Assembly: GCA_963825005.1 (NCBI GenBank)
Contig: CAWGRP010000015.1
Location: 65,748-129,747, forward strand
DNA length: 64,000 nucleotides
Direction: 5' to 3'
Source: an uncultured delta proteobacterium
Lineage (GTDB): Bacteria; Desulfobacterota; Syntrophorhabdia; Syntrophorhabdales; WCHB1-27
The position numbers and the translations under genes are program-made. The notes below the pieces were generated by a model, which did no database searches, was not told the origin of the DNA, and saw only the letters and a list, made by a program, of their open reading frames with translations. Below, piece by piece: positions 20,949-52,734 of the stretch; within the stretch, counting starts at the first letter, position 1, and each line of letters opens with the position of its first letter.

Positions 20949-21067
20949 GGTGCCCTCCCTTTTAGATTCTTTCATCCGCAAGTCTGAGAATTTTGTTCTA
21001 ACATTTTTGCCGGACTTTGCTTTTCCCTCAACCTCAATCTTAACCTTACGTTGTTAGACTTCTCGCT

Positions 21068-22018: not shown

Positions 22019-22026
22019 GGCGTCGA

Positions 22027-23242: not shown

Positions 23243-23268
23243 AAGTCAAACCCTCCCTGAATTAGACG

Positions 23269-24489: not shown

Positions 24490-24508
24490 AAGCGCACCTT
24501 TCTTTCGT

Positions 24509-33370: not shown

Positions 33371-33585
33371 GAAAGGCGCGCGGGGTCATGCCTTGACATA
33401 GGAACCGAAATCTTCATGCGTCACCGGAGTGAGCCGAGCTTTTCTGGCGGCTAGCCCTTCTCTGACGCGCCAGCCGGGATATCCTTGCATATCCATTTCC
33501 CGACCGGATGGCCGATGAGTCCCCGGGCACCGACACGGCGCGATCATCAATCGTCAGCTTGATTTCCGCCATCTTGCCTCCTTTA

Positions 33586-33625
33586 CCGTCACTAAAATCG
33601 ACCGAGTTCCGTCACTAAAATCGAC
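33586..33625. promoter_or_regulatory. perfect 17-bp direct repeat x2 (candidate regulator binding site)
   Basis: ccgtcactaaaatcgac at 33586-33602 and 33609-33625, 6-bp spacer. Lies in the 470-bp gap upstream of the molybdoenzyme locus. Confidence 0.4.
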
Positions 33626-33734
33626 TTTGTCTGAAATGGAACAGATTTATTTCTGGTCCCCGGGCAGACTGTTTATGCCAAATATGACATAACAAAGTGC
33701 CTGTTGTCAATGTTGGATTGTTCCTCGAACCTTC

Positions 33735-33763
33735 TTGATATTACGTCGATGGTAGCATAAAAT
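33735..33763 (+). promoter_or_regulatory. sigma70-type promoter candidate for the molybdoenzyme locus
   Basis: TTGATA-N17-TAAAAT, about 80 nt upstream of ATG 33843. Confidence 0.4.
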
Positions 33764-33842
33764 AGTCAACCCTGTAGGTTCCGGAGCGAGAAGCTAAGGA
33801 TGTACAAGGGGAAGACGTAGAAACGGAAGAGGAGAGGCGATC

Positions 33843-34766
33843 ATGCTAACCAGTTTACCCGACTTTGAACATCATTTCTGTGCCACAGTTGGAGAAGCCT
33901 GTTCGCTTCTTGCAGCGTACAAGGGTGAAGCGAAGGTACTTGCCGGAGGCACAGACCTGCTGGTGAAGATGAAGCACAGGCGGATACTGCCCCGCTACCT
34001 CGTCAATATAAAAAGGGTGCCAGACCTTGACTATATTCGGTATGACGAAGCTGAAGGGCTTAAGATAGGGGCACTGACTACAATGCAGGCCATAAGAAAC
34101 TCCTCGCTCGTCATGAAGAAGTTTTCGTCTTTGGGTCAGGCTGCAGGTGTATTAGGGACGCCCCACGTCCGAAATATAGCAACACTTGGAGGCAATTTGT
34201 GCAATGCCTCTCCTGCCGCCGAATGCGCGCCTGCCCTGCTGACCTTAGGAGCGAAGGCCAAACTCGCCAGCCTCGAAGGAGAACGTGTTGTTCAGATGGA
34301 AGACTTCTTCTGCGGTCCCGGTAAGAGCATCCTCAATGAAAACGAGATCCTGACCGAGATACAGGTCCCGAATCTTCCTCAGTGGACTGCCAGCGTGCAC
34401 CTGAAATACGGTTCGCGAAGAGTAGATGTTGCGGTTGTGGGGGCCAGCATAGTGATGACGGTTGACGGCTGGAAATGTAAGGACGTGAAAATCGCGCTGA
34501 GCGCTGTGGGCCCTACACCCTTTCGGGCGAAGCGAGCCGAAAGTCTCCTCAGGGGGGAAATGCTCAACGGCGCGAAGGAGAGTTTGATTGAAAAAGTGGC
34601 CCAGGCGGCGATGGAGGAGTCATCGCCCATTGATGACATACGAGGGCATGCGGACCACAGGAGACATCTGGTCAAGTCACTGGTGGCGGATGGGGTTGAG
34701 CGGTTGATTTCCCAGATGATCTACCAGAGCGCAAGTTCTCGACCGTCTGTCGTGAAACTCAACTAA
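33843..34766 (+). CDS. FAD-binding subunit of the xanthine-oxidase/CO-dehydrogenase family (CoxM/XdhB type)
   Basis: 307 aa; VLAGGTDLLVKMK, ATLGGNLCNASPAAE, C-terminal CO-DH flavoprotein domain (DIRGHADHRRHLV). Confidence 0.85.
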   Translation: MLTSLPDFEHHFCATVGEACSLLAAYKGEAKVLAGGTDLLVKMKHRRILPRYLVNIKRVPDLDYIRYDEAEGLKIGALTTMQAIRNSSLVMKKFSSLGQAAGVLGTPHVRNIATLGGNLCNASPAAECAPALLTLGAKAKLASLEGERVVQMEDFFCGPGKSILNENEILTEIQVPNLPQWTASVHLKYGSRRVDVAVVGASIVMTVDGWKCKDVKIALSAVGPTPFRAKRAESLLRGEMLNGAKESLIEKVAQAAMEESSPIDDIRGHADHRRHLVKSLVADGVERLISQMIYQSASSRPSVVKLN

Positions 34767-34778
34767 ATGACGAAATTT

Positions 34779-35030
34779 TTGTCGCAGATGTACGCAGATA
34801 ACAGCAAAGAGAGATGTACACAGATGAGCATATTCTGTGTTCAGCATTGCGAGTGCGCAGCCTCCTTTAGGGTACTGCGTCAATGCTGAACACACAGTCG
34901 CGCTGCGCGGCTAGAGGGTTACCCCACCGGAGGTGCGGGGAATGACCGGCTGTGCCGCTCTATCGCACAGGCGGTCAAAATAACTATCCGCACTGATCAC
35001 TGCCTTTATCCGCTCTTATCTGCGATGAAA
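34779..35030 (-). repeat. second copy of the ~240-bp MITE-like element (inverted relative to 16438-16674)
   Basis: The reverse complement aligns with 16438-16674: same termini (..cgcagata.. / ttatctgcgat), same block gaccgcctgtg(t/c)gata(a/g)agcg(a/g)cacagccgg, equivalent long hairpin gtgttcagcattg...caatgctgaacac. Confidence 0.8.
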
Positions 35031-35062
35031 GGCCAGTGGCTGTGAGGCAGGAGGATACAAGT

Positions 35063-37465
35063 ATGAAGCATCAGATTCATATAACGGTCAACGGCGAACA
35101 GCGCGATGTCACGGTAGAGTCGTCGCAAACCCTTCTTGATGTACTCAGAGATGAATTCAAGTTTTCAAGGACAAAAGAGGGCTGCGGCATAGGCGAGTGC
35201 GGAGCGTGTGCTGTTTCACTCGACAAGAAAATGGTGCCGTCCTGCATAGTGTTAGCCATTGATGCCGACAATAAGCAGGTGATCACGATGGAGGGTCTGT
35301 CCACCGATGCCCGGTTCGATCCGGTGATGGAATCGTTCATGCATCCGCAGCGCGGCGCCATGCACGCCAGCCACTCCAGACCGGGGACAAGAAAGAAACA
35401 CGAGGTGTTTACTTTTTGCCACGTCTGTCCGGGTCACTGCAGTATCAGGGCCATTGTAGAAGATGGGAAGCTGATCGATATAGAGCCTGACATGGAGAGC
35501 GGGTTGTGGAGCGAACAGTGCCCGGTGAAGAAAGGACGCTTCATCATACCGGATGTGCTTTCTCACGAAGACCGTCTGCTGTATCCAATGAAGAGGGTAG
35601 GGGCCAGAGGCGAGGGCAAGTGGCAGCGCATATCCTGGGATGAAGCGCTTGATACCATTGCAACGAAGTTCAGCCAGATCAAGGAGAAGTACGGGCCGGA
35701 AGCTGTTGCGTTCGGATTAGGCGAGCCGAAGGGCATGGAATTCGCCTATGGTCAGCGATTCGCTTCCGCCTTTGGTACGCCGACCGTGGTAACGCCCGCG
35801 TGGTTCTGCGGGGTCGCCGAACTGCAAGGTCAAGTGGCCACGTACGGCTGGAGCTCGGTCCCTGATGATCACCACACGCCCGAGGTGATAGTCATGTGGG
35901 GCTGCAACGCCAATCACACATCAGGCGCAATGAGGAGAGAGACGCTCGGTGCTAATATTCAGAAAGGCTCCAAACTCATCGTGGTCGATCCCATGAAGAC
36001 CGACTCCGCACGGGTGGCCGAGATCTGGATGAGACTGAAGCCGGGAAGCGACCTTGCTCTTGCCATGGGTATTTTAAAAGTCGTGGTTGAGGAGAAGCTG
36101 TACGATGAAGACATAGTTGCAAATTGGACAGTGGGATTCGACAAGCTGAAAGAGCATCTGGGAACGTTCTCCCTTGACGATGTTGAAAAAGTGACCTGGG
36201 TTCCAAGAAAACAGATCCAGGAATTTGCGAGACTCTACGGTCGGGCCGGATCGGCGGTAATCCAGGTGGGAAACGCCGTTGACATGCAGACCAACGGATT
36301 CCAAACCGTCAGGGCCATATCGATTTTGCGTGGCATTACCAATAACCTGAACGTTCGCGGCGGGGACGTATATGTTACGCCGGCGGGCTTCAGGCGGTTC
36401 GGCCATTTCTACCTGTTGAATAAATATCGTAGAAGAACGGACAAGATCCTTGGAGACAAATTCAAGATGTGTCAACGGATGGGCCTTATCCCGTCTCACA
36501 CGCTGGTTGATGCGATCCTGGATGAGAAGCCATATCCGGTCAAGGCTGCCTACTTTATCCTTACGAATCCACTCGTGAGTTGGCCTGATTCGAAGAGGAC
36601 GTATGAAGCGCTCATGAAGCTTGACTTCATCGTAACGCCTGAACTTTTCATGACGCCTACGGCAGCGCTTGCCGATATTGTCCTTCCGGCGGCCTGGGGT
36701 ATGGAGTGCGATGAACTCGGGTACTGGCCCGGATGGTACGGGGAGCTGAGAGCTCACCCCAAAGTTGTGGAGCCGCGCGGTGAATGCTGGTCGAATACGA
36801 AGATACTCAACGAGTTGGCCAAGCGGCTCGGCATGGGTGAGGATTTCTGGGAGGATGATGAAGAGGGCCTTGACGACATGGTCGAGCCCCTCGGCATGAC
36901 CTTTGAGCAGTTCAAAGATGAAAAAAGAACGATCATTCCGGAGCGGGAGTACGAGCAACATTTTTATACCACCCGCTCGGGCAGGCTGGAAATCTACTCT
37001 TCCCAGCTTGAGAGTATGGGTTACTCTCCCATGCCGCGGTTCGAAGAAGCGGTCGCCGGAACGCCTGTTGCGTCCGATGAATATCCGTTGCTCATGACGA
37101 ACGCGAAGGAAGAGGTGTACATGGGATCATCCTATTACCACGTCGCCTCGATTCGCAATATGAGGCCCTTTCCGGTCGTGGAGATGAACCCCGAAACAGG
37201 GCGCGAGAAAGGTCTCAAGGAGGGCGACTGGGTAACAATCGAAACAGCGGTGGGAAAGTGCAGGCAGAAGTTATCGTACAACAAGGACATCGATCCGAGG
37301 GTGGTTCTCGCTACGTTCTGCGCCTGGACACCCGAGAAGCCGGATGATGATTACGGCTGGCACACCGTAAACCTGAACATGGTCACCCCGAGCGGACCGG
37401 ATTACGACCCGCTCACAGGTGCGGTGACGTTGAGAGGCGTGCCGTGCAGGGTTGTACGTTCATAA
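35063..37465 (+). CDS. chimeric oxidoreductase: CoxS-type [2Fe-2S] domain fused to a bis-MGD molybdopterin (DMSO-reductase-family) catalytic subunit
   Basis: SD GGAGGA + ATG 35063. Residues 1-~90: MKHQIHITVNGEQRDV...EGCGIGECGACAV..VPSC (plant-type 2Fe-2S). The second-cluster motif is degraded (GAMHASHSRPG where GAxQCGxCTPG is expected). Then the MopB 4Fe-4S motif FCHVCPGHCSI...EQCP, RISWDEALDTIATKFSQIKEKYGPEAVAF, KLIVVDPMKTDSA, and the C-terminal MopB beta-barrel. Confidence 0.85.
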   Translation: MKHQIHITVNGEQRDVTVESSQTLLDVLRDEFKFSRTKEGCGIGECGACAVSLDKKMVPSCIVLAIDADNKQVITMEGLSTDARFDPVMESFMHPQRGAMHASHSRPGTRKKHEVFTFCHVCPGHCSIRAIVEDGKLIDIEPDMESGLWSEQCPVKKGRFIIPDVLSHEDRLLYPMKRVGARGEGKWQRISWDEALDTIATKFSQIKEKYGPEAVAFGLGEPKGMEFAYGQRFASAFGTPTVVTPAWFCGVAELQGQVATYGWSSVPDDHHTPEVIVMWGCNANHTSGAMRRETLGANIQKGSKLIVVDPMKTDSARVAEIWMRLKPGSDLALAMGILKVVVEEKLYDEDIVANWTVGFDKLKEHLGTFSLDDVEKVTWVPRKQIQEFARLYGRAGSAVIQVGNAVDMQTNGFQTVRAISILRGITNNLNVRGGDVYVTPAGFRRFGHFYLLNKYRRRTDKILGDKFKMCQRMGLIPSHTLVDAILDEKPYPVKAAYFILTNPLVSWPDSKRTYEALMKLDFIVTPELFMTPTAALADIVLPAAWGMECDELGYWPGWYGELRAHPKVVEPRGECWSNTKILNELAKRLGMGEDFWEDDEEGLDDMVEPLGMTFEQFKDEKRTIIPEREYEQHFYTTRSGRLEIYSSQLESMGYSPMPRFEEAVAGTPVASDEYPLLMTNAKEEVYMGSSYYHVASIRNMRPFPVVEMNPETGREKGLKEGDWVTIETAVGKCRQKLSYNKDIDPRVVLATFCAWTPEKPDDDYGWHTVNLNMVTPSGPDYDPLTGAVTLRGVPCRVVRS

Positions 37466-37530
37466 CGTTCGACGATCATCGATTGGAGTTCGTACCGTTC
37501 AATGAAATCGCTCGGAGAAATCTCTGACAG

Positions 37531-37574
37531 GATAGATTTCCTACGGGCAAGCCCGTGACCCGTGGAAATCTATC
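37531..37574. repeat. palindromic unit (11-bp stem), copy 1
   Basis: gatagatttcc-N22-ggaaatctatc. Sister copy at 37729-37764 (gaatagattttt...ggaaatctatc). Confidence 0.7.
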
Positions 37575-37577
37575 TAG

Positions 37578-37714
37578 TGTAGTGTTACAACAACGGCTTT
37601 ACAATGGTTTGAGGGCCGTCATTCCAGCGAAAGCTGGAATCCAGGTTGAAAAGACTGGATTCCGGATCAAGTCCGGAATGACACAGTGCCTAAAGTCATT
37701 CCTGTAACACTACA
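37578..37714. mobile_element. 137-bp MITE with 12-bp perfect TIRs and CTAG flanks
   Basis: tgtagtgttaca...tgtaacactaca flanked by CTAG on both sides. The sister palindromic unit shows the uninterrupted site atctatCTAGcgagc. The interior is a cruciform of gtcattccagcgaaagctggaatccag and ctggattccggatcaagtccggaatgac. Confidence 0.7.
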
Positions 37715-37766
37715 CTAGCGAGCCCCGGGAATAGATTTTTACGGGCAAGTCTGTGGAAATCTATCT

Positions 37767-37834
37767 AGCGAGCACGGCGAGCGAGAAGGGGAGGCTCCGG
37801 CGGCTTTGCCGCAGGAGGGGGCGACGCGAGCCCC
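37767..37834 (+). repeat. ~68-nt two-hairpin repeat in the leader of the accessory cassette (partner at 10181-10249)
   Basis: agcgagcacggcgagcgagaaggggaggctccggcggctttgccgcaggagggggcgacgcgagcccc. Ends 16 nt before ATG 37851. Confidence 0.75.
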
Positions 37835-37850
37835 GGGAATAGAGGGACAG

Positions 37851-38123
37851 ATGGAAGCACATGAACAGATATGTCTGCGTATACCAGAAGAAGTCGAGCA
37901 TCTCATGGAGCAACGGGGTATTCTGAAGCAGGACGTGCAGAAGGCAATTCACCATGCGGAGACAACCGGCGCAAAGTTCAATAACCCCTCCAACGGCCAT
38001 TGTCTCACATCGTACCGGCCGGACAGGGTTACGTACTGGGTGGAATACAGCCGCACCGATAACGAGTATCAGGTCCACAGCGCCTACTCCCATAGAATGG
38101 AAATGAAGAGAGGGCGTGGGTGA
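37851..38123 (+). CDS. small protein of unknown function (90 aa)
   Basis: MEAHEQICLRIPEEVEHLMEQRGILKQDVQKAIHHAETTG...YRPDRVTYWVEY...VHSAYSHRMEM. Stop overlaps the next start (TGATG). The track start 37806 lies inside the repeat, so ATG 37851 is preferred. Confidence 0.5.
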   Translation: MEAHEQICLRIPEEVEHLMEQRGILKQDVQKAIHHAETTGAKFNNPSNGHCLTSYRPDRVTYWVEYSRTDNEYQVHSAYSHRMEMKRGRG

Positions 38124-38335
38124 TGGCGGAAGGGGACAAATCAGGCGCTCAGGGCGAGTGGATATGTAACCTGTGCGGGATGCCGGCGAAGGTTCAAACC
38201 GTCAGACTGCAATATCTCAGGACCATATTTGCCCTCGATCTTCCTGCGTGTCCGCAATGCGGCATGATAATCATCGACGAAGAATTGGCAGTGGGAAAGA
38301 TGGCCGAGGCAGAGCAGACCCTCGAAGACAAGTAG
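38123..38335 (+). CDS. zinc-ribbon protein (YgiT-type CxxC...CxxC), 70 aa
   Basis: WICNLCG...(22 aa)...CPQCGMIIIDEELAVGKM. Translationally coupled to the upstream ORF. Confidence 0.55.
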   Translation: MAEGDKSGAQGEWICNLCGMPAKVQTVRLQYLRTIFALDLPACPQCGMIIIDEELAVGKMAEAEQTLEDK

Positions 38336-38359
38336 CCCTGACGGGTCGCCAGAGACTTG

Positions 38360-39085
38360 ATGATCGATTATCCGTTTACGTGCAAGGATCTTCGTCGCGC
38401 TGCGGGAAAATGCATGAGGCCCGGCGGAATAGTGCTTACTCAGAGGGCGCTCGATATTTGCAGCCTCTCTGACGGCTCCTCTGTAGCAGATATCGGCTGT
38501 GGCACCGGCGGAACCCTTACACACCTGGAACGGTCCGGCATTCACCGCCTGGTTGGAATTGACTTATCGGGCGACATGCTCTTAGAAGCTCTCCCGCAGA
38601 TGATCTCCGGGCAACTGGTAAAAGGTCGAGCACAGATTCTCCCTTTCAGAAATAGTTCATTCGATGCCCTCTTCTGTGAGTGCGTCCTTTCGCTTCTCGA
38701 CGACAAGGCCGCGGCAGTGCGAGAATCTGCCCGCGTGCTCAAAGATGGGGGATACCTTGTTCTGAGTGATCTCTTCGATGCCGGCGCCTCGGAAAGCCAA
38801 GCCGAGGGCTCTCATTCTCGGGGACCGGAGATGACGAAAGCATTCCCTTCAAAGGAATGCCTCCTCGATACGCTGTCACAGTTCGGGTTAGCACTTGTCC
38901 TGTGGGAGGAGCATGAACAATATCTCAGAGAATTCGTCGCTCGTCTGATTTTAGCCGGCGAATGGCTGACGGGTTTGCCATGCGGACAGGAACATCGCCG
39001 GAGAATCAGCTACTTTCTCCTGGTCGCCAGGAAGTCGGCCACACCTTTTCAGTCGGTAGCAACTGAAGGAGACGCTATGTCATGA
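38360..39085 (+). CDS. class I SAM-dependent methyltransferase
   Basis: Motif I VADIGCGTGGTL; post-I/II regions FDALFCECVLSLL, LKDGGYLVLSDL. Stop overlaps the next start (ATGA). Confidence 0.8.
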   Translation: MIDYPFTCKDLRRAAGKCMRPGGIVLTQRALDICSLSDGSSVADIGCGTGGTLTHLERSGIHRLVGIDLSGDMLLEALPQMISGQLVKGRAQILPFRNSSFDALFCECVLSLLDDKAAAVRESARVLKDGGYLVLSDLFDAGASESQAEGSHSRGPEMTKAFPSKECLLDTLSQFGLALVLWEEHEQYLREFVARLILAGEWLTGLPCGQEHRRRISYFLLVARKSATPFQSVATEGDAMS

Positions 39086-39525
39086 ATGATATGATCTTAC
39101 GCCTGGTGAGCCTGAAGGCCAAAGGGTTCTGCTGCGCTCAGGCCATCTTGATACTCGGACTGGAAGCGCAAGGTAAGGTTAACGTCGATCTGGTGAGATC
39201 CATGGCCGGCCTCTGTTACGGTATCAACTGGAGCGGCGAAGTCTGCGGAGCTCTCTCCGGGGGCGCCTGTCTTCTCTCGCTTTACTCAGGTAAGGGTACC
39301 TACCAGGAGGCGGCCAGCGACCAGCACACGAAAATGTTAGGCGAACTCGTGGAATGGTTTACGAGAGCGGCCGACGACCAGTACGGCGGCACGCGCTGCC
39401 ACGAAATTCTGGAAAAATTCCCCGATCGTAGTATGTGCGCCAAGATCGCAGCAGACACTTACAAGAAGTGTATGGATATCCTCGTGAGCCATGGGTTCGA
39501 TCCTGCTGTCGCCAAGGGGGAGTGA
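39082..39525 (+). CDS. C_GCAxxG_C_C family protein
   Basis: KGFCCAQAIL..., EVCGALSGGACLL, ...TRCHEIL...SMCAKIAADTYKKCMDIL (family-defining Cys pattern). Confidence 0.8.
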   Translation: MNDMILRLVSLKAKGFCCAQAILILGLEAQGKVNVDLVRSMAGLCYGINWSGEVCGALSGGACLLSLYSGKGTYQEAASDQHTKMLGELVEWFTRAADDQYGGTRCHEILEKFPDRSMCAKIAADTYKKCMDILVSHGFDPAVAKGE

Positions 39526-39530
39526 TCTTC

Positions 39531-40949
39531 ATGGATCAGGCGTACCCAAGTGACACCGAAAGTCTCTGCCCCGTGTGCCTCAGGAGAATTAAAGCAACAC
39601 GACTGCTCCGGGGAGACGAGGTGTCTCTCGTCAAGACATGCGGACATCACGGTTCCTTCAGCACCGTGATATGGCGCGGAGAGCCATCCATGGCACAATG
39701 GCAGAGAGCGAAGGATACTGTTCATCCAGACCTTTGCTACGGTACAGTTGAAAAGGGCTGCCCTTTCGACTGCGGCCTCTGCGCCGCCCATGAGCAGCTT
39801 CCCTGTTCAGTGCTGCTTGAGGTGACCGATCGCTGTAACTTGCGTTGCCCGGTCTGCTTCGCAGATTCTGGCTCAGCACCAAAACAAGAACCTTCATTAG
39901 AGAAGATCTCGTGGCTGCTTGAACGGGCAATGGCCTCCGCAGGACCGACCAATCTCCAGCTGTCGGGGGGTGAACCCACGCTGCGCGAGGATCTTCCCCA
40001 GATCGTGGAACGCGCGCGGCGCGTCGGCTATTCGTTCATTCAGCTCAATACAAACGGTCTCCTTCTTGCCTCTGATAGAAGCTACGCAAGAAGGCTCCAT
40101 GATGCCGGTCTGTCATCGGTCTTCCTTCAGTTCGATGGCGTGGACGATACTGTCTACCAGGCTCTGCGAGGGCGAGTCCTCTTTGAAGAAAAACTGAAGG
40201 CCATCCGGAACTGCGGGGAGAGCGGTCTTGGTGTTGTGTTAGTCCCCACACTGGTGGCAGGAGTAAACACCGGATCCATTGGCGCGATACTACGCCAAGC
40301 CCTGCACTTGGCACCTGTCGTGCGTGGCATTCATTTCCAGCCGGTGAGCTATTTCGGCCGCTTTCCGACCAAGGGTGGCGATCAAGATCGGTTCACGCTC
40401 CCGGAACTGATGAGAAGCCTTGAGGAACAGACAGAAGGCTTGGTCAGGGTAGCGGACTTTTCTCCTCCTGGCTGCGAGCATGCTCATTGCTCCTTCCACG
40501 CTACGTATGTGCGCTCCGCCAGGGGCGAATTGAAAGCACTAGGTGCGGCTAAGGATGATAGCTGCTGTTCGGCAGGGGTAAATACAGGAGGAGTAAGGAA
40601 AACGGTAGAGACAGTCTCACGCCGTTGGAGCTTGCCTTCCACATCGGCAACCGTCAAGGGGTTTATGTTGAAAGACGGGGCCGCAGCCTCCTGCTGCGAT
40701 CAGAGCAAACCTGACGCGGCGCGACACGACGGCGCTCTTGATCTGGATCTTTTTCTCCAGGAAGTCGCCTTACGAAGTTTTACCATATCTGCCATGGCTT
40801 TCCAGGATGCGGACAACCTCGATATGGAAAGGCTCAAGGGCTGCTGCATATCAGTCATATCTCCCGACGGCAGGCTGATCCCGTTCTGCGCGTATAATCT
40901 CACCAGCAGAGACGGAAGGAGTCTCTATCGCCGGCGAAACGGGTCATGA
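39531..40949 (+). CDS. radical SAM enzyme with N-terminal zinc ribbon and Cys-rich C-terminal extension
   Basis: CPVCLRR...CGHHG ribbon; GCPFDCGLC; radical SAM motif DRCNLRCPVCFA; SGGEPTL; C-terminal FTISAMAFQDADNLDMERLKGCCISV..DGRLIPFCAYN. Confidence 0.8.
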   Translation: MDQAYPSDTESLCPVCLRRIKATRLLRGDEVSLVKTCGHHGSFSTVIWRGEPSMAQWQRAKDTVHPDLCYGTVEKGCPFDCGLCAAHEQLPCSVLLEVTDRCNLRCPVCFADSGSAPKQEPSLEKISWLLERAMASAGPTNLQLSGGEPTLREDLPQIVERARRVGYSFIQLNTNGLLLASDRSYARRLHDAGLSSVFLQFDGVDDTVYQALRGRVLFEEKLKAIRNCGESGLGVVLVPTLVAGVNTGSIGAILRQALHLAPVVRGIHFQPVSYFGRFPTKGGDQDRFTLPELMRSLEEQTEGLVRVADFSPPGCEHAHCSFHATYVRSARGELKALGAAKDDSCCSAGVNTGGVRKTVETVSRRWSLPSTSATVKGFMLKDGAAASCCDQSKPDAARHDGALDLDLFLQEVALRSFTISAMAFQDADNLDMERLKGCCISVISPDGRLIPFCAYNLTSRDGRSLYRRRNGS

Positions 40950-40953
40950 CCTG

Positions 40954-42285
40954 ATGATCGCCATCACTCCACTTGAGCAATGGATCAGAAGAAAAGCGCA
41001 TATCACCTCAGAATTGGAAGGCCGTTCCTTTCTGAAAGCGCTTTCAGATTACCAGCTCCAGCGAGTGAACGAAACCATCAGCTACGCACGTCACAACAGC
41101 GCTTTTTACAGGCGTCATCTGGCTTCTTGCGCGACTGCGCCCCTGGCTACTCTTTCAGACATCGATCAAATTCCTTTTACCACTGCTTCAGATCTGACCC
41201 GAGATCCCTTTCGTTTCCTCGCGGTTCGTCAGGACGATGTAGCACGAATTGTCACTCTCCGCACATCAGGGAGCACAAGTGATCCCAAGCGCCTCTTTTT
41301 TTCTGACGACGATCTGGAGCTGACGATTGACTTCTTTCATCACGGCATGTCGACTATCGTTCGACCGGGGCAGAAAGTAGCAGTACTCCTTCCCAGCGAA
41401 CAAACCGACAGCGTGGGAGATCTTCTTATCAGGGGCCTTGGAAGAATGGACGTTGCCGCCCTTGCGTACGGGCCTGTCAAGGATCCTCTCCAGGCCATCC
41501 GCGACGTTGCCTCTTTTGGCGCCGATTGCGTGGTGGGTATCCCAACGCAGGTGCTCGCAATGGCCCGCTCATCACTGGGGCCGATCGGGAAAGGCTGCAT
41601 AGAAAGCGTTCTTTTGAGCACGGACTATGTCCCGCACGCGATCGTACGATCTCTGGAGGAGGTCTGGGGTTGCAGAGTATTCAATCATTACGGTATGACC
41701 GAGATGGGACTCGGAGGCGGGGTAGAGTGTGAGGCACTTGACGGATATCACCTCAGGGAGGGAGATCTCTACTTCGAGGTGGTCGATCATGAAACAGGCG
41801 CCAGGTGTCCCGACGGTGTGATGGGCGAGGTAGTCTTTACGACCCTCACGAGACGAGCCATGCCTCTCGTACGATACAGGACCGGCGACATGGGGCGGAT
41901 TATCCGCGAGTCCTGCCCCTGCGGCAGCGCTCTGAGGAGGATGGAGCGCGTCAAGGGCAGGTGGGATGGCGCTTTTCGCCTGGGTCCTGAATCTACTCTG
42001 ATGCTCTCCGATATGGATGAAGCGCTGTTCCGGCTTCCGGACCTGCTCGATTACCGGGTTACACTCTCAGAATGCAAGGACGGAAGGTTCCGGCTTCATA
42101 TCGATGTATGCAGGGCAGAAGATGGCAACACAACTTCCCGCGAAATCCTGCAAATGCTCAGCGAGGTCGACGCGATACAAAAAGCTATTACCACTGCGAA
42201 CCTGGAGATACCCCTCGTGCGTTTCTCGGAAGAGGGACGCTCGACCAGTAATGGCGTAGTGAAAAGAAAGCTACGTTGTGTATAA
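40954..42285 (+). CDS. PaaK / coenzyme-F390-synthetase-type adenylate-forming ligase
   Basis: 443 aa; RTSGSTSDPKRLFFS (AMP-binding P-loop), NHYGMTEMG, YRTGDMGR, C-terminal small domain. Confidence 0.8.
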   Translation: MIAITPLEQWIRRKAHITSELEGRSFLKALSDYQLQRVNETISYARHNSAFYRRHLASCATAPLATLSDIDQIPFTTASDLTRDPFRFLAVRQDDVARIVTLRTSGSTSDPKRLFFSDDDLELTIDFFHHGMSTIVRPGQKVAVLLPSEQTDSVGDLLIRGLGRMDVAALAYGPVKDPLQAIRDVASFGADCVVGIPTQVLAMARSSLGPIGKGCIESVLLSTDYVPHAIVRSLEEVWGCRVFNHYGMTEMGLGGGVECEALDGYHLREGDLYFEVVDHETGARCPDGVMGEVVFTTLTRRAMPLVRYRTGDMGRIIRESCPCGSALRRMERVKGRWDGAFRLGPESTLMLSDMDEALFRLPDLLDYRVTLSECKDGRFRLHIDVCRAEDGNTTSREILQMLSEVDAIQKAITTANLEIPLVRFSEEGRSTSNGVVKRKLRCV

Positions 42286-42295
42286 GTAAATATAA

Positions 42296-42503
42296 CGGTG
42301 GTTGATAGTCAAGGATATTTCTATCCGCATCAGGAGAAAATTATGGAAGCTCTCCAGTCCGATGTGGTACTGTCAACGGGCGGCGTATCGATGGGGAAGT
42401 ACGATTTCGTTAAAGATACGTATTCCGATCTGGATGTCGAGATGTGGAACTGAATGCAGGAGAGAAAGTCGCTATTCAATTGATCGATCATGACGAGATA
42501 TAG
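42296..42503 (+). pseudogene. moeA: moeA relic (about 50 codons of domain III plus about 20 codons of the C-terminal domain; the rest deleted)
   Basis: Own translation: ..HQEKIMEALQSDVVLSTGGVSMGKYDFVKDTYSDLDVEMWN* (frame 1). It is then joined out of frame to ..ELNAGEKVAIQLIDHDEI*. The canonical MoeA GGVSxGxxD motif is present. Confidence 0.6.
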
Positions 42504-42536
42504 GCAGGGCATTATGTTTTTCGGAACGAGGCCATC

Positions 42537-43778
42537 ATGAAAGAAATGTCTCTTGGTTTAGCCGAGGCGTTGCGAATGACGCTCCAGGCCATAAGCCCGC
42601 TTCCCGCCGAGAGCGTTTCCCTGGTTGAAAGTGTAGACCGGGTGGCTGCCTCAGACCTTTACGCACTCGTGGATTCCCCCTCCACGGATGTCTCCCTCAA
42701 AGATGGCTATGCAGTGCTATCCCGTGACATAGACCATGCGACTCCCGAAAATCCGGTGCGGCTGCCGCTCATTGGTTCTATAGCCGCAGGAAGTGCAACG
42801 GAGATTCAGATCAGGCCGGGGACGGCGGTAAGGGTATTGTCAGGAGCACGCATCCCTTCCGGTGCTGACGCTGTGGTGGCCGAAGAATTTGTTAAACGGC
42901 CGGATGGTAATCTGCAGGATGTGCTGGTAGAGACCTTTGCTGAACCCGGAAGGAATATCCTGCCGCGCGCCAGTGACGTGGCATTGCGGGAATGTATTCT
43001 CCGGTCAGGCCAACCAATATCGCCGGCCATGGCCGGTCTTCTCGCCGCTGCGGGACACAGCGCGATACCTGTCTTCAGAAATCCGGTCGTGGGGATTATC
43101 GGAACCGGGGACGAAATCGTTGAGGCGGGCGAGCCTGCCGCGGAAGGCAAGCTCTATGCGAGTAATATCGTTACCGTGGCAGGGTGGTGCAAGAAATATA
43201 ACATGGAACCTCACATGATAGTTAGCCGAGATGATCCTGATGCCATCTTGAGCGCTCTGAAAACCGTCTCCGACGAGACGGACGCTGTGATAACGAGCGG
43301 AGGGGCGTGGACTGGAGACCACGACGTAGTGGCCAGGGTGCTTAAAGAAATCGGATGGAAACAGGTCTTCCACCGCATCCGCATAGGGCCGGGCAAGGCA
43401 GTCGGCTTCGGCATGCTGCATAAGAAACCGGTTTTTATTCTGCCTGGCGGGCCTCCCTCGAATCTGATGGCTTTTCTGCAGATCGCCTTGCCCGGCCTCC
43501 TTGCACTCTCCGGCCACAAAGAGCAGGGCTTGCCCGTAATTAATGCAAGGCTCGCCTCCGAACTCAAAGAGGGTGATCCCGCGTGGACCGATTTTTTCTT
43601 CGGCATTGTTGAATCTACTGAAGGACTGCCGATTTTTCACCCTATGAAAAAGCGCACGCGATTGAGCTTGATCGCCGAGGCTACGGCAATCGCGTCGATA
43701 CCGGAAGGAGAAGATTCTCTACCGGAGGGATCCGTGATTACTATTCAATTACTGAAGCAGACAGTCGGTGGATGTTGA
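42537..43778 (+). CDS. moeA: molybdopterin molybdenumtransferase MoeA paralogue (divergent)
   Basis: 413 aa; SLKDGYAV, RVLSGARIPSGADAVV, IIGTGDEIV, SGGAWTGDHD (variant of GGVSxGxxD), IGPGKAVGFG, FILPGGPPS. Confidence 0.85.
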   Translation: MKEMSLGLAEALRMTLQAISPLPAESVSLVESVDRVAASDLYALVDSPSTDVSLKDGYAVLSRDIDHATPENPVRLPLIGSIAAGSATEIQIRPGTAVRVLSGARIPSGADAVVAEEFVKRPDGNLQDVLVETFAEPGRNILPRASDVALRECILRSGQPISPAMAGLLAAAGHSAIPVFRNPVVGIIGTGDEIVEAGEPAAEGKLYASNIVTVAGWCKKYNMEPHMIVSRDDPDAILSALKTVSDETDAVITSGGAWTGDHDVVARVLKEIGWKQVFHRIRIGPGKAVGFGMLHKKPVFILPGGPPSNLMAFLQIALPGLLALSGHKEQGLPVINARLASELKEGDPAWTDFFFGIVESTEGLPIFHPMKKRTRLSLIAEATAIASIPEGEDSLPEGSVITIQLLKQTVGGC

Positions 43779-43807
43779 TCTTTGACGTGGCAAAGGGCCG
43801 GAAGTAA

Positions 43808-44269
43808 GTGCTGATGCAGAACCTTACGACCAGAGGAACAGTAGAAGCCATCTGGATTAAGAGAGGTAAAGGTGAGCCCATGGATTCGGTTCCATCGGCC
43901 AAGCTCATTGCCGGGCGAGGTATTGCCGGCAACGCCGACCAGGGCGGGAAAAGGCAGGTTACCATAATCGAGCAAGAGGTCTGGGATCAATTAATGGAGC
44001 AGGTCGGAGGCTCACAACCTGCAAGCGCGCGACGCGCTAACCTCATGGTCAGTGGCATCCGCCTCGTCGACAGCCAGGACAGGATTCTACGAGTGGGCTC
44101 CTGCCGGATAAGAATACACGGAGAGACAAAACCGTGCCGAAGGATGGAGGATACAGTTGAAGGATTGCGGGGAGCAATGGAGGACGGAGGATGGAAGGGC
44201 GGTGCTTATGGAGAAGTGATTGAGGGTGGAGAAATATCAGTCGGCGATCCGGCCTTCTGGGAAGAATAG
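43808..44269 (+). CDS. MOSC-domain protein (Moco sulfurase C-terminal domain family)
   Basis: ~150 aa; RQVTIIEQE, ARRANLMVSG, RIHGETKPCRRME (conserved Cys). Confidence 0.75.
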   Translation: MLMQNLTTRGTVEAIWIKRGKGEPMDSVPSAKLIAGRGIAGNADQGGKRQVTIIEQEVWDQLMEQVGGSQPASARRANLMVSGIRLVDSQDRILRVGSCRIRIHGETKPCRRMEDTVEGLRGAMEDGGWKGGAYGEVIEGGEISVGDPAFWEE

Positions 44270-44500
44270 TAACACGAGAAAGCTCTTTCGCGTGTAACAT
44301 CGAAGATAGTTTCTGATCGGCGCATCACCTTATCCCGTGAGTCTGGCAACCTTGAACAGGCGCGGCGCAGGTCCTATATTAAGCGCGAGGGGGTGAAGAT
44401 CATGCACATATCACGTCTGCAATTCCTGAAGGCATGCGTATCGGCCCGGGCTGCTTATCGCTAACAAAGACAGGATCGGGTTATAACAAGGAGCATAGTC

Positions 44501-44833
44501 ATGGCTGAATATTATGAGAAGAAGGATCTTGAAGATTTCGTAAACATCGGGGAGTACGCGCCGGAATTAGGAAAGAAATATTTCGACTATTACGGCGAGG
44601 CCATGAAGGCGGGTGCGCTCAGCGAGCGGGAAAAGACGCTCATTGCGCTGGTGGTGGCGACGACGCAGAAATGCCCGTACTGCATCGACGCGTACACGAA
44701 CCAGTGTTTATCTCTGGGCATAACGCGGCAGGAAATGATGGAAGCCGAGCACGTAGGCGCGGCCATGGTGGCAGGCATCGTACTGGCTCACACCACGCAG
44801 ATGCGCAAAATAGTCAAGAAGAAGGAGATGTGA
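44501..44833 (+). CDS. AhpD-like / carboxymuconolactone-decarboxylase-family CxxC protein (the type paired with ArsS-like radical SAM enzymes)
   Basis: SD AAGGAG; 110 aa; LSEREKTLIALVVATTQKCPYCIDAY. Confidence 0.75.
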   Translation: MAEYYEKKDLEDFVNIGEYAPELGKKYFDYYGEAMKAGALSEREKTLIALVVATTQKCPYCIDAYTNQCLSLGITRQEMMEAEHVGAAMVAGIVLAHTTQMRKIVKKKEM

Positions 44834-44835
44834 GC

Positions 44836-45783
44836 GTGAGTTTTTCCTTCGCAGATCGGGTATCACCACCGCTTACGGCTGAGGAGATCAGTATTCTCCA
44901 GGTCAATGTCGGGTACCGTTGCAACCTGGCGTGCAGGCATTGCCATATCAACGCGGGCCCGCAGCGGCGCGAGATGATGTCGAAGGAGGTAATGGAGCAG
45001 TGCCTCAGGATCCTGAAGAGTCATCCCATACCCGCAATCGATATTACGGGCGGGAGTCCCGAGATGCATCCCCGGATCGAATGGTTCCTCAAGGAGTGCG
45101 CGGCTCTGAAGCGTCGGCTGCTCGTGAGAACGAACGGAGTGATTCTGCTGGAGAAGGATTACGAATCTTTCATCGATCTTTACGCCGACAATCGGATAGA
45201 GGTCGTGATATCCTTGCCGCACATGGATCCTCATGTGACGGACCGCCAGAGGGGAGAGGGTGTCTTCCCGAAACTGATTGAGGCGATCCGCAGGCTCAAC
45301 GTGCGAGGCTACGGGCAGTCCGGGAGCGGTCTTCTCCTCGATCTGGTCCATAACCCCGGCGGTGCGTACCTGCCCGGTTCACAGGCCGCACTGGAGGCTT
45401 CGTATCGCCGTACACTCGAGGCCAGGCACGGGGTTACATTTAATCATCTCTTCTGTATAACGAATATGCCGATCGGCCGTTATCTGGATTACCTGTGGAA
45501 GACGGACAATTACGAGGAGTACATGACAGCCCTGGTGAATGCTTTCAATCCAGCCGCCCTGGGCAAGGTGATGTGCAGGACAACGCTTTCCGTTGCCTGG
45601 GATGGAAGACTCTACGACTGCGACTTCAATCAGGTGCTTGGTCTCCCCATCTGTCACAGCGCTCCCGGCCATGTTTCCGCCTTTGACCTGCACGAACTGG
45701 CGCACCGCCGGATATCAACCGGCGACCACTGTTACGGCTGCACTGCGGGCGCGGGAAGTTCGTGCCAGGGAGAAGTTGCCTGA
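44836..45783 (+). CDS. ArsS-type radical SAM / Cys-rich-domain protein
   Basis: GTG start about 8 nt after GGAG; VGYRCNLACRHCH; ITGGSPEMHP; C-terminal DHCYGCTAGAGSSCQG motif. Confidence 0.8.
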   Translation: MSFSFADRVSPPLTAEEISILQVNVGYRCNLACRHCHINAGPQRREMMSKEVMEQCLRILKSHPIPAIDITGGSPEMHPRIEWFLKECAALKRRLLVRTNGVILLEKDYESFIDLYADNRIEVVISLPHMDPHVTDRQRGEGVFPKLIEAIRRLNVRGYGQSGSGLLLDLVHNPGGAYLPGSQAALEASYRRTLEARHGVTFNHLFCITNMPIGRYLDYLWKTDNYEEYMTALVNAFNPAALGKVMCRTTLSVAWDGRLYDCDFNQVLGLPICHSAPGHVSAFDLHELAHRRISTGDHCYGCTAGAGSSCQGEVA

Positions 45784-45932
45784 TGACGGGCGGGATTGAA
45801 CTTTCGCGCTTGCCTTTTTCGCGCACCAATACCGTAGTTCTTGTGCGGCAGAAAGAAACGGATGCTCAAAGGTGGAATGAAGAAGGTGCGGCGAAGGTGT
45901 TGCGGATTTCCTGAGGGACAGGGCAGGGGAAT

Positions 45933-48532: not shown

Positions 48533-49054
48533 TTACTGCCGCGATGAAGAGTGCGCCTGCGCACCGAGAGGTTTCGTTTCAACACCCCACGTGCTCAATC
48601 GTTGCGCGACTGCCGCGATGATTGCTTCCAGACGGTCTTGCAGAACGTCCGTTAATTCGATACCAATGTCGATCGATTTTGGCTGGATGCCGACGAGGTA
48701 GATTTCGGACGGTAGCGTATCGCTTATCTTTGCGGCAAACAATAGATCGGCGAGCCCCACGTGGTGCACCGAACCTTGTGCGCTCAGAAAGGAAGGGAGC
48801 TCATTCCCTTCCATGAGCACAATTTCTCCGGGCGACTCTCCGGCATCGACTGCGTCCACAAAGATCACCCTTTCGTAAAGATCCATTACCGGGAGCAGAT
48901 CGAGTCCTGCTGTGCCTCCGTCGATCAGATCGATGTGCGGTTGAAAGCGGTACAGCTTCTCCATCGCTTCTATAGTGCGAATGCCGACAGCGTCATCTTG
49001 CATGAGGAGGTTGCCCAGCCCGATAACGCAGATCTCATATCGATTTGTATTCAT
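48533..49054 (-). CDS. [NiFe] hydrogenase maturation endopeptidase (HyaD/HybD type)
   Basis: From MNTNRYEICVIGLGNLLMQDDAVG...; FVDAVD; GSVHHVGL. The track start 49150 lies inside a repeat. Confidence 0.85.
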   Translation of the reverse strand: MNTNRYEICVIGLGNLLMQDDAVGIRTIEAMEKLYRFQPHIDLIDGGTAGLDLLPVMDLYERVIFVDAVDAGESPGEIVLMEGNELPSFLSAQGSVHHVGLADLLFAAKISDTLPSEIYLVGIQPKSIDIGIELTDVLQDRLEAIIAAVAQRLSTWGVETKPLGAQAHSSSRQ

Positions 49055-49085
49055 GTGGACGACCCAGCCTTCGGCCGGGTGCCCC

Positions 49086-49160
49086 GGGCGGCAGCGAGGA
49101 GTTGACGCAGGCGTACTGTAAGTACGTCGAGGAGAACGACGCAGCGACAACGAAGGTATG
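49086..49160. repeat. second copy of the core shared with 25818-25963
   Basis: gggcggcagcgaggagttgacgcaggcgtactgtaagtacgtcgaggagaacgacgcagcgacaacgaaggtatg. Sits between the cytochrome b stop and the protease start. Confidence 0.75.
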
Positions 49161-49180
49161 CACGTGAAGACAAATCGATA

Positions 49181-49855
49181 TTATTCTTCACGGCAGGTCT
49201 TGTGGCCTGAGAATATCGAACTCATCACGCAGTTATCTTCCACCAGGTCGGTTGTCCAGCCGATGTACATGTGGACGATAGGGAAGACGATCAGGAACCA
49301 CATGATGAAGTGGTGAACAAGCCGAACCTCCTGGACAGGGAAATAGGGGAGTATCCAGCCGCCCACGATTTTCCAGAAAAGCCCCACGTGACTCTGCGAC
49401 ATCAGCGCAAAGCCGGTCAGTATGGAAACGAGATAACCAAGAAAGAGCACCATATACGATATTCCGGCGAGGACCGAATGGCCCAGGACGAAAGGCGGAC
49501 GGTCATTCAGAAGGAAATAGAACCGAAGATCGTAGTAAAGTTCCCTGATGCGTTCCCTGTTGTAAGGGATCAGGGCGCTCCAGCGCGCGTACCGGTTGCC
49601 CACAAAACCCCAGTAGATCCTGAGCAGGACTCCCATGGCGAAGACATATCCCGCCGAAAAGTGTATCAGCCTCATCCAGCCCATGACGAACTGATTGTTT
49701 GGATTGGCGCCGTAGAACAACGGGGATACGCTGTCTATGTACGGGTGACCTATGTAGTAGCCGGTAAAACTCAAAATTATGAGACAGGCTGCATTCACCC
49801 AGTGGGACAGGCGGACCGGCAGTTCCCAGATATAAACGTCGGTCAGCTTTAACAT
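49181..49855 (-). CDS. [NiFe] hydrogenase b-type cytochrome subunit
   Basis: 224 aa, four TM helices; LSHWVNA...; position after the large subunit. Confidence 0.85.
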   Translation of the reverse strand: MLKLTDVYIWELPVRLSHWVNAACLIILSFTGYYIGHPYIDSVSPLFYGANPNNQFVMGWMRLIHFSAGYVFAMGVLLRIYWGFVGNRYARWSALIPYNRERIRELYYDLRFYFLLNDRPPFVLGHSVLAGISYMVLFLGYLVSILTGFALMSQSHVGLFWKIVGGWILPYFPVQEVRLVHHFIMWFLIVFPIVHMYIGWTTDLVEDNCVMSSIFSGHKTCREE

Positions 49856-49858
49856 CGG

Positions 49859-51568: not shown

Positions 51569-52689
51569 TGCGGACCCTTCCATTCTTTTTTGGGTTGAGC
51601 CTTTGTCGGTTCTTTCGCCTCTTCTTTGGGCTTGCGGACCCGCTTGAGCAGCCTTGCTGCGGTGTGGATAAGGATACCGCCCACTGTTGCGGAAGTGACC
51701 GCGAGGCCTACTTTGTCCGCGGTTGTTTCCACGGTGATGCCGAAAGGCTGCGGAAGCCTCCTGTAGAAGGGAGTCATCTGATCCCAGAAGTCGGGTGCGG
51801 CGCACGCGATGCACCCGTGCCCGGATTGCACGGGCCAGCTGGTGCGCTCATTGTATTTGACGGTGGGACAGTTCTGATAGGCTTCGGGTCCTTTGCACCC
51901 CATGTAGTAGAGGCACCAGCCGAGACGATGTCCATCGTCGCCCCATTGCCTTACATACTGTCCTGCATCGAAATGGGAGCGTCTCTCGCAATTGTCATGA
52001 ATCCTCTTGCCGTAAGCAAAAAGCGGCCGTCCCAGAGCATCCAGCGCAGGAAGTACACCGAATGTGAGATAGTAAACGATCGCGGCAGTTATGTTCTCAG
52101 CGTTGACAGGACAGCCGGCGAGATTGATGACGGTTGCTCCGGGCACTGCATCGCGCACGCCCACAGCGCCTGTGGGATTGGGGTGTGCTTTCGGGATGCC
52201 TCCGAACGTGGCGCAGGTTCCCATGGCGAAGGTGGCAATGGCGCTCCCGCAGACTTCCCGGACGATATCGACGGAGCTGCGGCCTCCGATACAGCAATAG
52301 GCACCGTTTTCTCCGAGAGGAATCGAGCCCTCGACCGCGGCGAAGTAATTCCCTTTGTGATTTTTAAGCACGTCGGCAAGGGACTTCTCAGCCTGTTTGC
52401 CGGCCGCAGCCATGATGGTCTCGCTGTAGTCGAGGGAGAGCACGTCAAGGATCAGCTCGCTTGCAGTCGGTTTTGAAGCCCTGAGCAGCGCTTCCGTATC
52501 GCCTGTGCAGCTCTGACACTCAATCCAGACAAGGATCGGTTTCTTCTTTGTCTCAAGTGCGTTGGCAATCCTGGGGACGTAGCTTGAAGAGAGCCCGAGC
52601 ACGGCGGCACAAGCCGTGCAATATTTGAGAAAATCCCTGCGGTTGACACCCCGGTCGAGCAGTTCTGCGAGCAGATTATCAACGGCCAT
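51556..52689 (-). CDS. group-1 [NiFe] hydrogenase small subunit (Tat-exported, C-terminal anchor)
   Basis: Tat motif NRRDFLK; [15 protein letters not shown]; C-terminal helix [27 protein letters not shown] before ATG 52689. Confidence 0.95.
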
Positions 52690-52734
52690 CGACCCTCCTC
52701 TCTCAGCTGCCACTGATTGAACTCAATTAAAAAA

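Follow-up and report, generated by a model that had tools for sequence, protein, structure and literature searches.

We examined a 12-kb block of genes within a 64-kb window (the whole stretch of DNA analysed, from contig CAWGRP010000015.1 of an uncultured delta proteobacterium), in which a molybdenum- or tungsten-type oxidoreductase is followed by a six-gene cassette that includes the radical S-adenosylmethionine (SAM) enzyme TrsS, by molybdenum cofactor (Moco) genes and by a second radical SAM enzyme. An earlier note on this DNA had proposed that the block forms one undescribed system. Open reading frame (ORF) calls and profile searches of the block proteins against Pfam and NCBIfam, with curated cut-offs, placed all of the genes that it had listed on the + strand between 33.8 and 45.8 kb, where it had located them. 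Comparison of gene content and neighbourhoods indicates that the block probably consists of four juxtaposed modules rather than a single system. Module A would comprise a flavin adenine dinucleotide (FAD) subunit and a catalytic subunit that we call Fer2-MopB (33843–37465), module B the six-gene TrsS cassette (37851–42285), module C a moeA relic, a MoeA and a MOSC protein (42331–44269) and module D an AhpD-like/ArsS pair (44501–45783).

The cassette begins with p90, a standalone ORF of 90 amino acids (aa) at 37851–38123, followed by a DVU_1557-family CxxC...CxxC zinc ribbon (DUF7479, 38123–38335; NF045645, 87 bits against a cut-off of 60; PF24292), a DVU_1556-family SAM methyltransferase (38357–39085; NF045667, 187 bits against 155), a DVU_1555-family C_GCAxxG_C_C protein (39082–39525; NF045669, 156 bits against 103; PF09719), TrsS (39531–40949; NF045646, 641.9 bits against 490, over model positions 2–441 of 441) and a DVU_1553-family PaaK-like adenylating ligase (40954–42285; NF045666, 458 bits against 300). 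All six genes are intact and, as had been noted before, tightly packed, with junctions that are either overlaps (TGATG, ATGA) or spacers of 4–24 nucleotides (nt). The resemblance of the set to DVU_1553–DVU_1557 that the earlier note suggested proved right, five of the cassette proteins scoring above their NCBIfam cut-offs. The 90-aa protein, which had been called unknown, is the C-terminal domain of NF045663 (DVU_1558), aligning to model positions 672–758 of 759. TrsS carries an N-terminal zinc ribbon (PF23545, Zn_ribbon_HMPTM, 62.8 bits) and a PF04055 domain (84.1 bits) with the radical SAM motif CNLRCPVC; it is the Cys form, there being no in-frame TGA in 39531–40949, a form for which the family name, ‘(seleno)protein’, allows. 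The ligase is closest to phenylacetate-CoA ligases (PaaK structure 4r1l, 130 bits), and sequence searches of the PDB gave no match for the C_GCAxxG_C_C protein or p90.

To place the cassette among its relatives, we surveyed one genome per species, which yielded at least 559 TrsS relatives, and analysed the best 80 loci with 10-kb flanks, whose ORFs were clustered and then annotated. Each of the other five cassette genes is present in 69–72 of these 80 loci, in the same order. The canonical form is an 11-gene array that runs from a MoCF_biosynth protein through the xanthine-oxidase-family aldehyde oxidoreductase MOP (NF045668), DVU_1558 (NF045663), DVU_1557, the methyltransferase, the C_GCAxxG protein, TrsS and the ligase to an XdhC-like protein (NF045664, labelled ‘aldehyde oxidoreductase maturation factor’), the DVU_1551 NTP transferase/HD protein (NF045665) and a histidine phosphatase. 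DVU_1558 is made up of a GltD-like part, a dicluster, CCG domains and p90. The MOP of the array is an orthologue of the crystallized Desulfovibrio enzymes (1DGJ, 1469 bits; 1VLB/1SIJ, 1379 bits), and DVU_1559 is the Aor of D. vulgaris. A search from the MOP side, which covered three orthologues from unrelated metagenomes, found the full 11-gene array with all three.

A second type of cassette belongs to the window's own clade, with TrsS 60–74% identical, and has p90 as a separate gene; its partner, counted in 14 of the 80 loci, is an AOR-family enzyme (AFOR_N/AFOR_C) accompanied by a ferredoxin-like protein of approximately 180 aa and often by two MoeA paralogues. The state of p90 follows the partner without exception across the 80 loci, being fused where the enzyme is MOP (52 loci) and free where it is AOR plus ferredoxin (13 loci, plus locus L009, described below). 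Of the 14 loci with no partner, 11 are truncated by contig ends, and the other three (L007, L015 and L055) also lack most of the cassette. In these three, two of which (L007 and L015) come from the same metagenome-assembled genome, we observed either TrsS by itself or the methyltransferase with it, and no pterin enzyme lies within 5–10 kb, so that these loci depart from a partnership that is constant elsewhere. These comparisons suggest that the TrsS cassette is, in all likelihood, a conserved accessory of pterin-dependent aldehyde oxidoreductases from two unrelated families. The tie of the cassette to molybdenum/tungsten-pterin enzymes and Moco genes, expected in the earlier note, is thus seen across phyla, both in the 80 TrsS loci and from the MOP side, and its statement that the cassette has no assigned function still stands.

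The window shares with the DVU_1551–DVU_1559 MOP operon (NF045645, NF045646 and NF045663–NF045669) homologues of DVU_1557, DVU_1556, DVU_1555, TrsS and DVU_1553, in an identical order and just as tightly packed, but it lacks MOP, a full DVU_1558, the XdhC-like factor, the DVU_1551 NTP transferase/HD protein and the phosphatase. No MOP orthologue lies beside the cassette, the sole xanthine-oxidase-type gene of the window (16.7–19.3 kb) scoring 94–98 bits, and full-length DVU_1558 is absent from the window, where NF045663 reaches 107.5 bits against a cut-off of 530, over its last 87 model positions. Searches of these 64 kb of the source genome also gave no match to the XdhC-like NF045664 or the NTP transferase NF045665 and no AOR (AFOR_N/AFOR_C). 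It is likely, then, that the window holds the AOR-type form of the cassette with a standalone p90, whose AOR and ferredoxin partner have been lost or moved.

Module A opens with a CoxM/XdhB-type FAD subunit of 307 aa (33843–34766; PF00941, PF03450), for which the top NCBIfam match is XdhB at 229 bits, under the cut-off of 310. The 800-aa Fer2-MopB follows at 35063–37465 (PF00111, an Fe4S4 motif, PF00384 and PF01568) and, by Pfam and alignment, joins an N-terminal plant-type [2Fe-2S] domain to a [4Fe-4S] MopB of the bis-pyranopterin guanine dinucleotide (bis-PGD) type with a Cys metal ligand. All of the features of MopB membership are present (PF00384, PF01568, the CxxCxxxC...C cluster motif and the metal-ligand Cys), and C41/46/49/61, C119/122/126/153 and C249 are invariant across the family. 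The CoxS-type domain reported in the earlier note is only half there: the first plant-type [2Fe-2S] domain is kept, whereas the second cluster domain is gone, neither PF01799 nor the second Cys motif being found by Pfam or alignment. Because the N-terminus is the Fer2 domain, the protein has no Tat signal, as that note had stated. The closest solved structure is that of acetylene hydratase (PDB 2e7z, 313 bits, compared with 176 for FdhH), whose ligand Cys aligns with Cys249. Asp13 of acetylene hydratase is catalytic, and Fer2-MopB has a Pro at this position, after the second cluster Cys; on this ground, and given the fused Fer2 domain and the FAD subunit, we rejected identity with acetylene hydratase. 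Formate dehydrogenase alpha (TIGR01591, 293 bits against 666), PhsA (273 against 694) and DmsA (233 against 778) were rejected as well, and every NCBIfam equivalog cut-off was missed by a wide margin. Its sequence places Fer2-MopB in a large, uncharacterized clade related to acetylene hydratase.

The likeness to acetylene hydratase (2E7Z), the best structural relative of the MopB domain, extends to the [4Fe-4S] motif, the Cys metal ligand, the cytoplasmic location and the absence of a Tat signal, but the fused [2Fe-2S] domain and the FAD subunit make the window protein a redox enzyme. With the xanthine-oxidase-family modules (CoxS/CoxM and XdhB/XdhC) it shares the PF00941/PF03450 FAD subunit and the CoxS-like first [2Fe-2S] domain; the catalytic domain, in contrast, is MopB and not MoCoBD, and the MopB [4Fe-4S] cluster replaces the second [2Fe-2S] cluster. 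We propose that module A would be a cytoplasmic two-subunit molybdenum/tungsten oxidoreductase in which electrons would pass from the metal-bisPGD(Cys) centre to [4Fe-4S], then to [2Fe-2S] and finally to FAD. Upstream of the FAD gene lie two exact 17-nt direct repeats, CCGTCACTAAAATCGAC, at 33586–33625, with starts 23 nt apart, which are possibly an operator, and a promoter-like site stands between them and the gene at 33735–33763. Promoter and terminator scans gave match counts no higher than in shuffled sequence, and only the positions of single sites are suggestive.

A survey of Fer2-MopB gave 3877 relatives with E <1e-20, which occur in Beta- and Alphaproteobacteria, Verrucomicrobia and Desulfobacterota, and we compared the neighbourhoods of 85 loci. 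The FAD gene is directly upstream in 62 of them, a 526-aa AMP-binding CoA ligase is nearby in 53, an enoyl-CoA hydratase in 20 and UbiD in 11. A CoA ligase thus adjoins this family as it does 4-hydroxybenzoyl-CoA reductase. Since the clade travels with the 526-aa CoA ligase and with UbiD/UbiX or enoyl-CoA hydratase, module A probably acts on an aromatic or alicyclic acyl-CoA, by hydroxylation or reduction, as far as gene context can tell. The TrsS cassette accompanies Fer2-MopB in a single locus of the 85, that of the window's 90%-identical relative; the relatives at 85, 83 and 82% identity have no cassette, and their neighbours are the ligase, UbiD (twice), a UbiX-like flavoprotein, transporters, an FmdE-like protein and an old-yellow-enzyme homologue. 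The FmdE-like gene was observed directly 3′ of Fer2-MopB in two relatives (L172, 12504–13112; L173, 12571–12945) and could encode a dedicated accessory factor. One of these loci (L173) also holds a second, tandem FAD/Fer2-MopB pair. From the opposite direction, no FAD/Fer2-MopB orthologue was found in any of the 80 TrsS loci, where the few MopB matches are 22–31% identical. Module A, by this comparison of neighbourhoods, appears not to need the cassette. The assignment of Fer2-MopB as the enzyme of the cassette in the earlier note therefore fails on both counts (0/80 and 1/85), the usual partner being MOP or AOR.

How the two modules came to adjoin can be read from three contigs (L081–83) of approximately 80% DNA identity, which align with the window over the FAD gene, Fer2-MopB and the cassette. 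The DNA homology breaks at 37452 and 37838, and in the three relatives Fer2-MopB and p90 are separated by FdhA-like genes (products of 352 and 535 aa) that occupy approximately 3 kb of the opposite strand. The two products come from the ORF calls, which in L081 divide a single FdhA-like gene (10712–13405, − strand), and the division could arise from a TGA that encodes selenocysteine but was taken for a stop codon. The ligase gene of L082 is directly followed by one for an AOR. As the earlier note had remarked, both intergenic gaps of the window are filled with repeats. The gap at 37466–37850 holds, from 37500 to 37850, an element resembling a miniature inverted-repeat transposable element, with 28-nt inverted arms at 37574–37601 and 37691–37718 and flanking direct repeats GTGGAAATCTATCTAG and GCGAGCCCCGGGAATAGA; it stands in place of both the opposite-strand FdhA-like genes of the relatives and the cassette's own upstream region. 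The gap at 34767–35062 holds a dispersed repeat (element 34943–35030), a related copy of which lies 18 kb away at 16490–16674, adjoining the xanthine-oxidase-type gene. On the − strand at 33502–33576, the beginning of a short ORF, MAEIKLTIDDRAVSVPGDSSAIRSG, aligns with the N-terminus of the L081 FdhA-like protein (12 of 25 residues identical, E 1e-5) before the frame is lost, and is probably a relic of an FdhA-like gene. Because an opposite-strand gene pair separates the modules in the nearest relatives, the alignments point to a local rearrangement as the origin of the A–B adjacency. The window copy looks both rearranged and partly decayed, having lost AOR and having a broken moeA.

That moeA relic, at 42331–42500, derives from a second MoeA paralogue that related loci contain, and survives as two fragments that lie in different frames, the part between them being deleted: 42331–42444 and 42450–42500 match residues ~252–288 and 409–425 of the paralogue, its middle and its C-terminus, at 62–78% identity, and Pfam MoCF_biosynth scores 25.5 bits. 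The relic claimed in the earlier note is therefore real but is not the 63-aa ORF of the ORF list (42302–42493), which matched nothing, the relic lying in other frames. The intact MoeA (42537–43778) has clear PF03453 and PF00994 domains and a weak PF03454 (19.6 bits against 22.1), and its equivalog scores are all under cut-off (for example, 239 against 440), in keeping with its earlier description as divergent. Because its orthologues, at 55–73% identity, flank AOR-type cassettes in three loci (L002, L012 and L013), MoeA and the relic are best read, on the basis of synteny, as remnants of an AOR-type cassette neighbourhood. Module C as a whole, including the MOSC-domain protein at 43808–44269, would likewise be the remains of the Moco-insertion genes that flank such cassettes, which we regard as probable.

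Module D consists of an AhpD-like protein (44501–44833; TIGR04169, 147 bits against a cut-off of 120) and an ArsS-type radical SAM enzyme (44836–45783; TIGR04167, 415 bits against 300), which starts 2 nt past the AhpD stop. The pair is preceded by a gap of 231 nt that contains a promoter-like site, and a terminator-like hairpin (45790–45807) follows ArsS. The two are a separate, known pair, like the arsenosugar-associated ArsS/TIGR04169 pair in that both proteins are above cut-off and translationally coupled, but differing from it in that the window has no adjacent ArsM. Neither protein has a link to the TrsS cassette: AhpD-like, ArsS and MOSC genes stand beside the cassette in none of the 80 loci, which speaks against their inclusion with it in one system. 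What is conserved from the earlier gene set is accordingly the six-gene cassette, and not the combination with its neighbours.

As for what the cassette does, the families suggest that the ligase would adenylate a carboxylate, that TrsS would perform radical C–C or C–S chemistry and that the methyltransferase would methylate. We lean slightly, and tentatively, towards an enzyme-dedicated role in maturation or activation. This leaning rests on the interleaving of the cassette with XdhC, MocA/HD and MoeA genes and on the link to the enzyme seen from both search directions. The composition of the cassette also recalls the Hcg pathway of [Fe]-hydrogenase cofactor.

The strongest rival, which we hold to be possible but rather unlikely, is that the cassette is a metabolic or electron-relay module with no part in maturation. 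As a relay, MOP or AOR would supply very low-potential electrons to ferredoxin or DVU_1558, from where they would pass through p90:DVU_1557 and the C_GCAxxG protein to TrsS. In every case p90 comes after a domain or protein for Fe-S electron transfer, and the set is upregulated on syngas in C. ljungdahlii, where the 2017 authors saw it as redox proteins; both points fit this rival. As a pathway, MOP or AOR would give a carboxylate, the PaaK-like ligase would activate the acid and TrsS and the methyltransferase would transform the activated molecule; the closeness of the ligase to phenylacetate-CoA ligases fits this, and anaerobic phenylalanine degradation offers a precedent for an AOR that works together with a phenylacetate-CoA ligase. 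More generally, MOP and AOR belong to unrelated families and use different pterin cofactors, yet both are aldehyde oxidoreductases, so that what they share is an activity and not a cofactor. On the other hand, the conserved neighbours of the cassette include no transporter, regulator or additional catabolic enzyme, no substrate is evident, and genes for XdhC, the MocA/HD protein, the phosphatase and MoeA are interleaved with the cassette.

Far less probable is the model of the earlier note, in which the whole block is one system whose cassette, MoeA, MOSC and AhpD/ArsS would assemble or alter either the pterin cofactor of Fer2-MopB or the ligand in its active site. The genes are co-directional, with only the repeat-filled gap of 385 nt between MopB and p90, the native upstream region of the cassette is absent and the cassette is always found among Moco genes. 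A locus of Geobacter hydrogenophilus DSM 13691 (L009, 229–4911) is also in its favour: there a 159-aa p90-DUF7479 fusion overlaps the start of a 722-aa acetylene-hydratase-like MopB, 31% identical with that of the window, and maturation ATPase genes follow for CoxD-like AAA and CoxE-like VWA proteins. L009 thus shows the p90/zinc-ribbon module beside yet another, third kind of pterin enzyme. Against the model stand the 84 of 85 Fer2-MopB/FAD loci that lack the cassette, the 82–85% identical relatives among them, the complete absence of this enzyme from the cassette loci, the 90% relative, in which opposite-strand genes part the modules and the cassette keeps its AOR, and the failure of ArsS, AhpD and MOSC ever to accompany the cassette. 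A broader version, in which p90/DUF7479 and the TrsS block form an unrecognized general activation or maturation system for MOP, AOR and acetylene-hydratase-like MopB enzymes, installing a labile ligand or modification that is lost on aerobic purification, and re-targeted here to Fer2-MopB/FAD, seems to us similarly improbable.

Several points nevertheless weigh against our own reading of the locus as juxtaposed modules or against the tentative maturation role of the cassette. Given L009, p90/DVU_1557 may have some form of coupling to the window MopB, and the cassette, its native upstream region being gone, may now be transcribed from the MopB operon. The AOR partner may also exist outside the visible 64 kb. 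Crystal structures of MOP show an ordinary molybdopterin cytosine dinucleotide, which argues against pterin tailoring; the crystallized MOP enzymes were, though, purified aerobically. The 1.28 Å MOP structure comes from D. gigas. A search with the D. gigas MOP sequence, rebuilt from the PDB alignment, did not recover the protein of that species among its matches, the best of which was 79% identical, and the structural argument therefore stays indirect. Finally, none of our results separates the maturation role from the pathway role.

TrsS is homologous to GDGT-MAS/Tes (PDB 7tol, 293 bits; Tes model, 337 bits), sharing the N-terminal metal ribbon, the radical SAM core and a C-terminal segment, and one might suppose that it is a bacterial tetraether synthase for membrane-spanning lipids, with the methyltransferase and the ligase acting on fatty acids. 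Zeng et al. (2022) considered that bacterial Tes homologues may make branched glycerol dialkyl glycerol tetraethers, which would suit such a role. We nevertheless judge it very improbable, as TrsS forms a separate NCBIfam family of bacterial hosts and scores far better against that family (642 bits, compared with 337 for Tes), and the middle part of GDGT-MAS (chain residues ~330–447) does not align with it. No lipid-synthesis genes are conserved nearby, pterin enzymes being its invariable neighbours, and on this gene context the lipid-synthase role was rejected.

The first two cassette proteins may form a docking pair. Free-standing homologues of p90 fall into at least 120 clusters. An AlphaFold2 model of p90, with a mean pLDDT (predicted local distance difference test) of 89, has two helices followed by a four-stranded sheet, and its best Foldseek matches in the PDB are the toxins RelE, HigB, ParE and MqsR, weak ones by every measure (E 0.03, probability ≤0.96, TM (template modelling) score 0.42–0.52), so that a RelE/MqsR-like α–β fold is predicted from a weak match. 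DVU_1557 passes the model of the YgiT (MqsA N-terminal) finger (TIGR03831, 21.2 bits against a cut-off of 20.2), and the order of the two genes, with their TGATG overlap, resembles mqsR-mqsA. To this likeness to MqsR-MqsA and RelE/HigB the fusion in L009 may be added; it is offset by the low structural scores, the lack of a helix-turn-helix domain and the occurrence of p90 mostly as a domain of a large oxidoreductase. We suggest that p90 and DVU_1557 would bind each other in the manner of MqsR and MqsA and dock on the pterin enzyme or on its Fe-S partner. That they are instead a true MqsR/MqsA-type toxin–antitoxin pair that only stabilizes the locus is extremely improbable and was rejected, for all the toxin-first gene order with its TGATG overlap, the toxin-like fold of p90 and the YgiT-type finger of DVU_1557, as p90 is the C-terminal domain of a 760–830-aa oxidoreductase in 56 of the 80 TrsS loci, its match to the toxin fold is weak, the zinc-ribbon protein has no DNA-binding domain and the place of the pair in the operon is the same from phylum to phylum.

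The description of the system as undescribed does not survive, as NCBIfam has curated models for each of the five families and for TrsS, and the set was partly noted in 2017. TrsS is credited in PMC13188914 to Haft and Tolstoy 2025, and the cassette is already named and published. The 2017 paper on C. ljungdahlii had noted the set of MOP, FAD/CCG, 4-Cys and C_GCAxxG proteins, and our literature search on DVU_1553–DVU_1558 returned proteomics tables only. Within the literature covered, to which the primary TrsS paper does not belong, we found no report of the two partner types with p90 fission or fusion, of the toxin–antitoxin-like docking pair or of the Fer2-MopB/FAD plus CoA ligase family. 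The claim of an undescribed integrated system should be withdrawn.

Elsewhere in the window, the − strand at 8702–24564 carries a cluster like the E. coli ygeW-ygfK region of the purine-type, selenium-dependent molybdenum hydroxylase, with genes for a xanthine/uracil permease, a 1121-aa YgfK-like protein, two amidohydrolases, a xanthine-oxidase-type enzyme, a carbamoyltransferase-like protein, a carbamate kinase and a pyridoxal phosphate enzyme. The catalytic part of the xanthine-oxidase-type enzyme is split over overlapping ORFs at 17237–18670 and 16693–17442, which could be a frameshift or a pseudogene. Long in-frame tandem repeats with 141-nt and 105-nt units span 6663–8513 inside an ORF of 617 aa (6670–8523), which is on this account a repeat protein. 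The − strand at 48533–52713 carries a NiFe hydrogenase operon, with genes for the small and large subunits, a cytochrome b and a HycI-type protease; upstream of the operon lie a PAC2-family gene and the gene for a 525-aa protein that matched no family. A 66-nt direct repeat of 86% identity has copies 23 kb apart at 25889–25954 and 49109–49174, the latter where the gene region of the hydrogenase maturation protease begins.

Taken as a whole, the window would hold not a new integrated system but a rearranged, partly decayed AOR-type variant of the TrsS cassette, without its partner, beside a MopB enzyme. That enzyme, Fer2-MopB/FAD, represents a widespread hybrid of a xanthine-oxidase-type electron-transfer module with a DMSO-reductase-type core and, with its CoA ligase and UbiD/UbiX neighbours, is a candidate new enzyme of anaerobic aromatic-acid degradation. 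The cassette itself is found in hundreds of anaerobes, among them sulfate reducers, acetogens, syntrophs and Chloroflexota, and is firmly tied to the aldehyde oxidoreductase of Desulfovibrio, a classic enzyme that has been studied for 40 years and whose physiological role is still unclear. The function of the cassette is made testable by the finding that it probably serves two unrelated aldehyde oxidoreductase families, by the switch of p90 between fused and free forms according to the partner and by the predicted docking likeness of p90 and DVU_1557.

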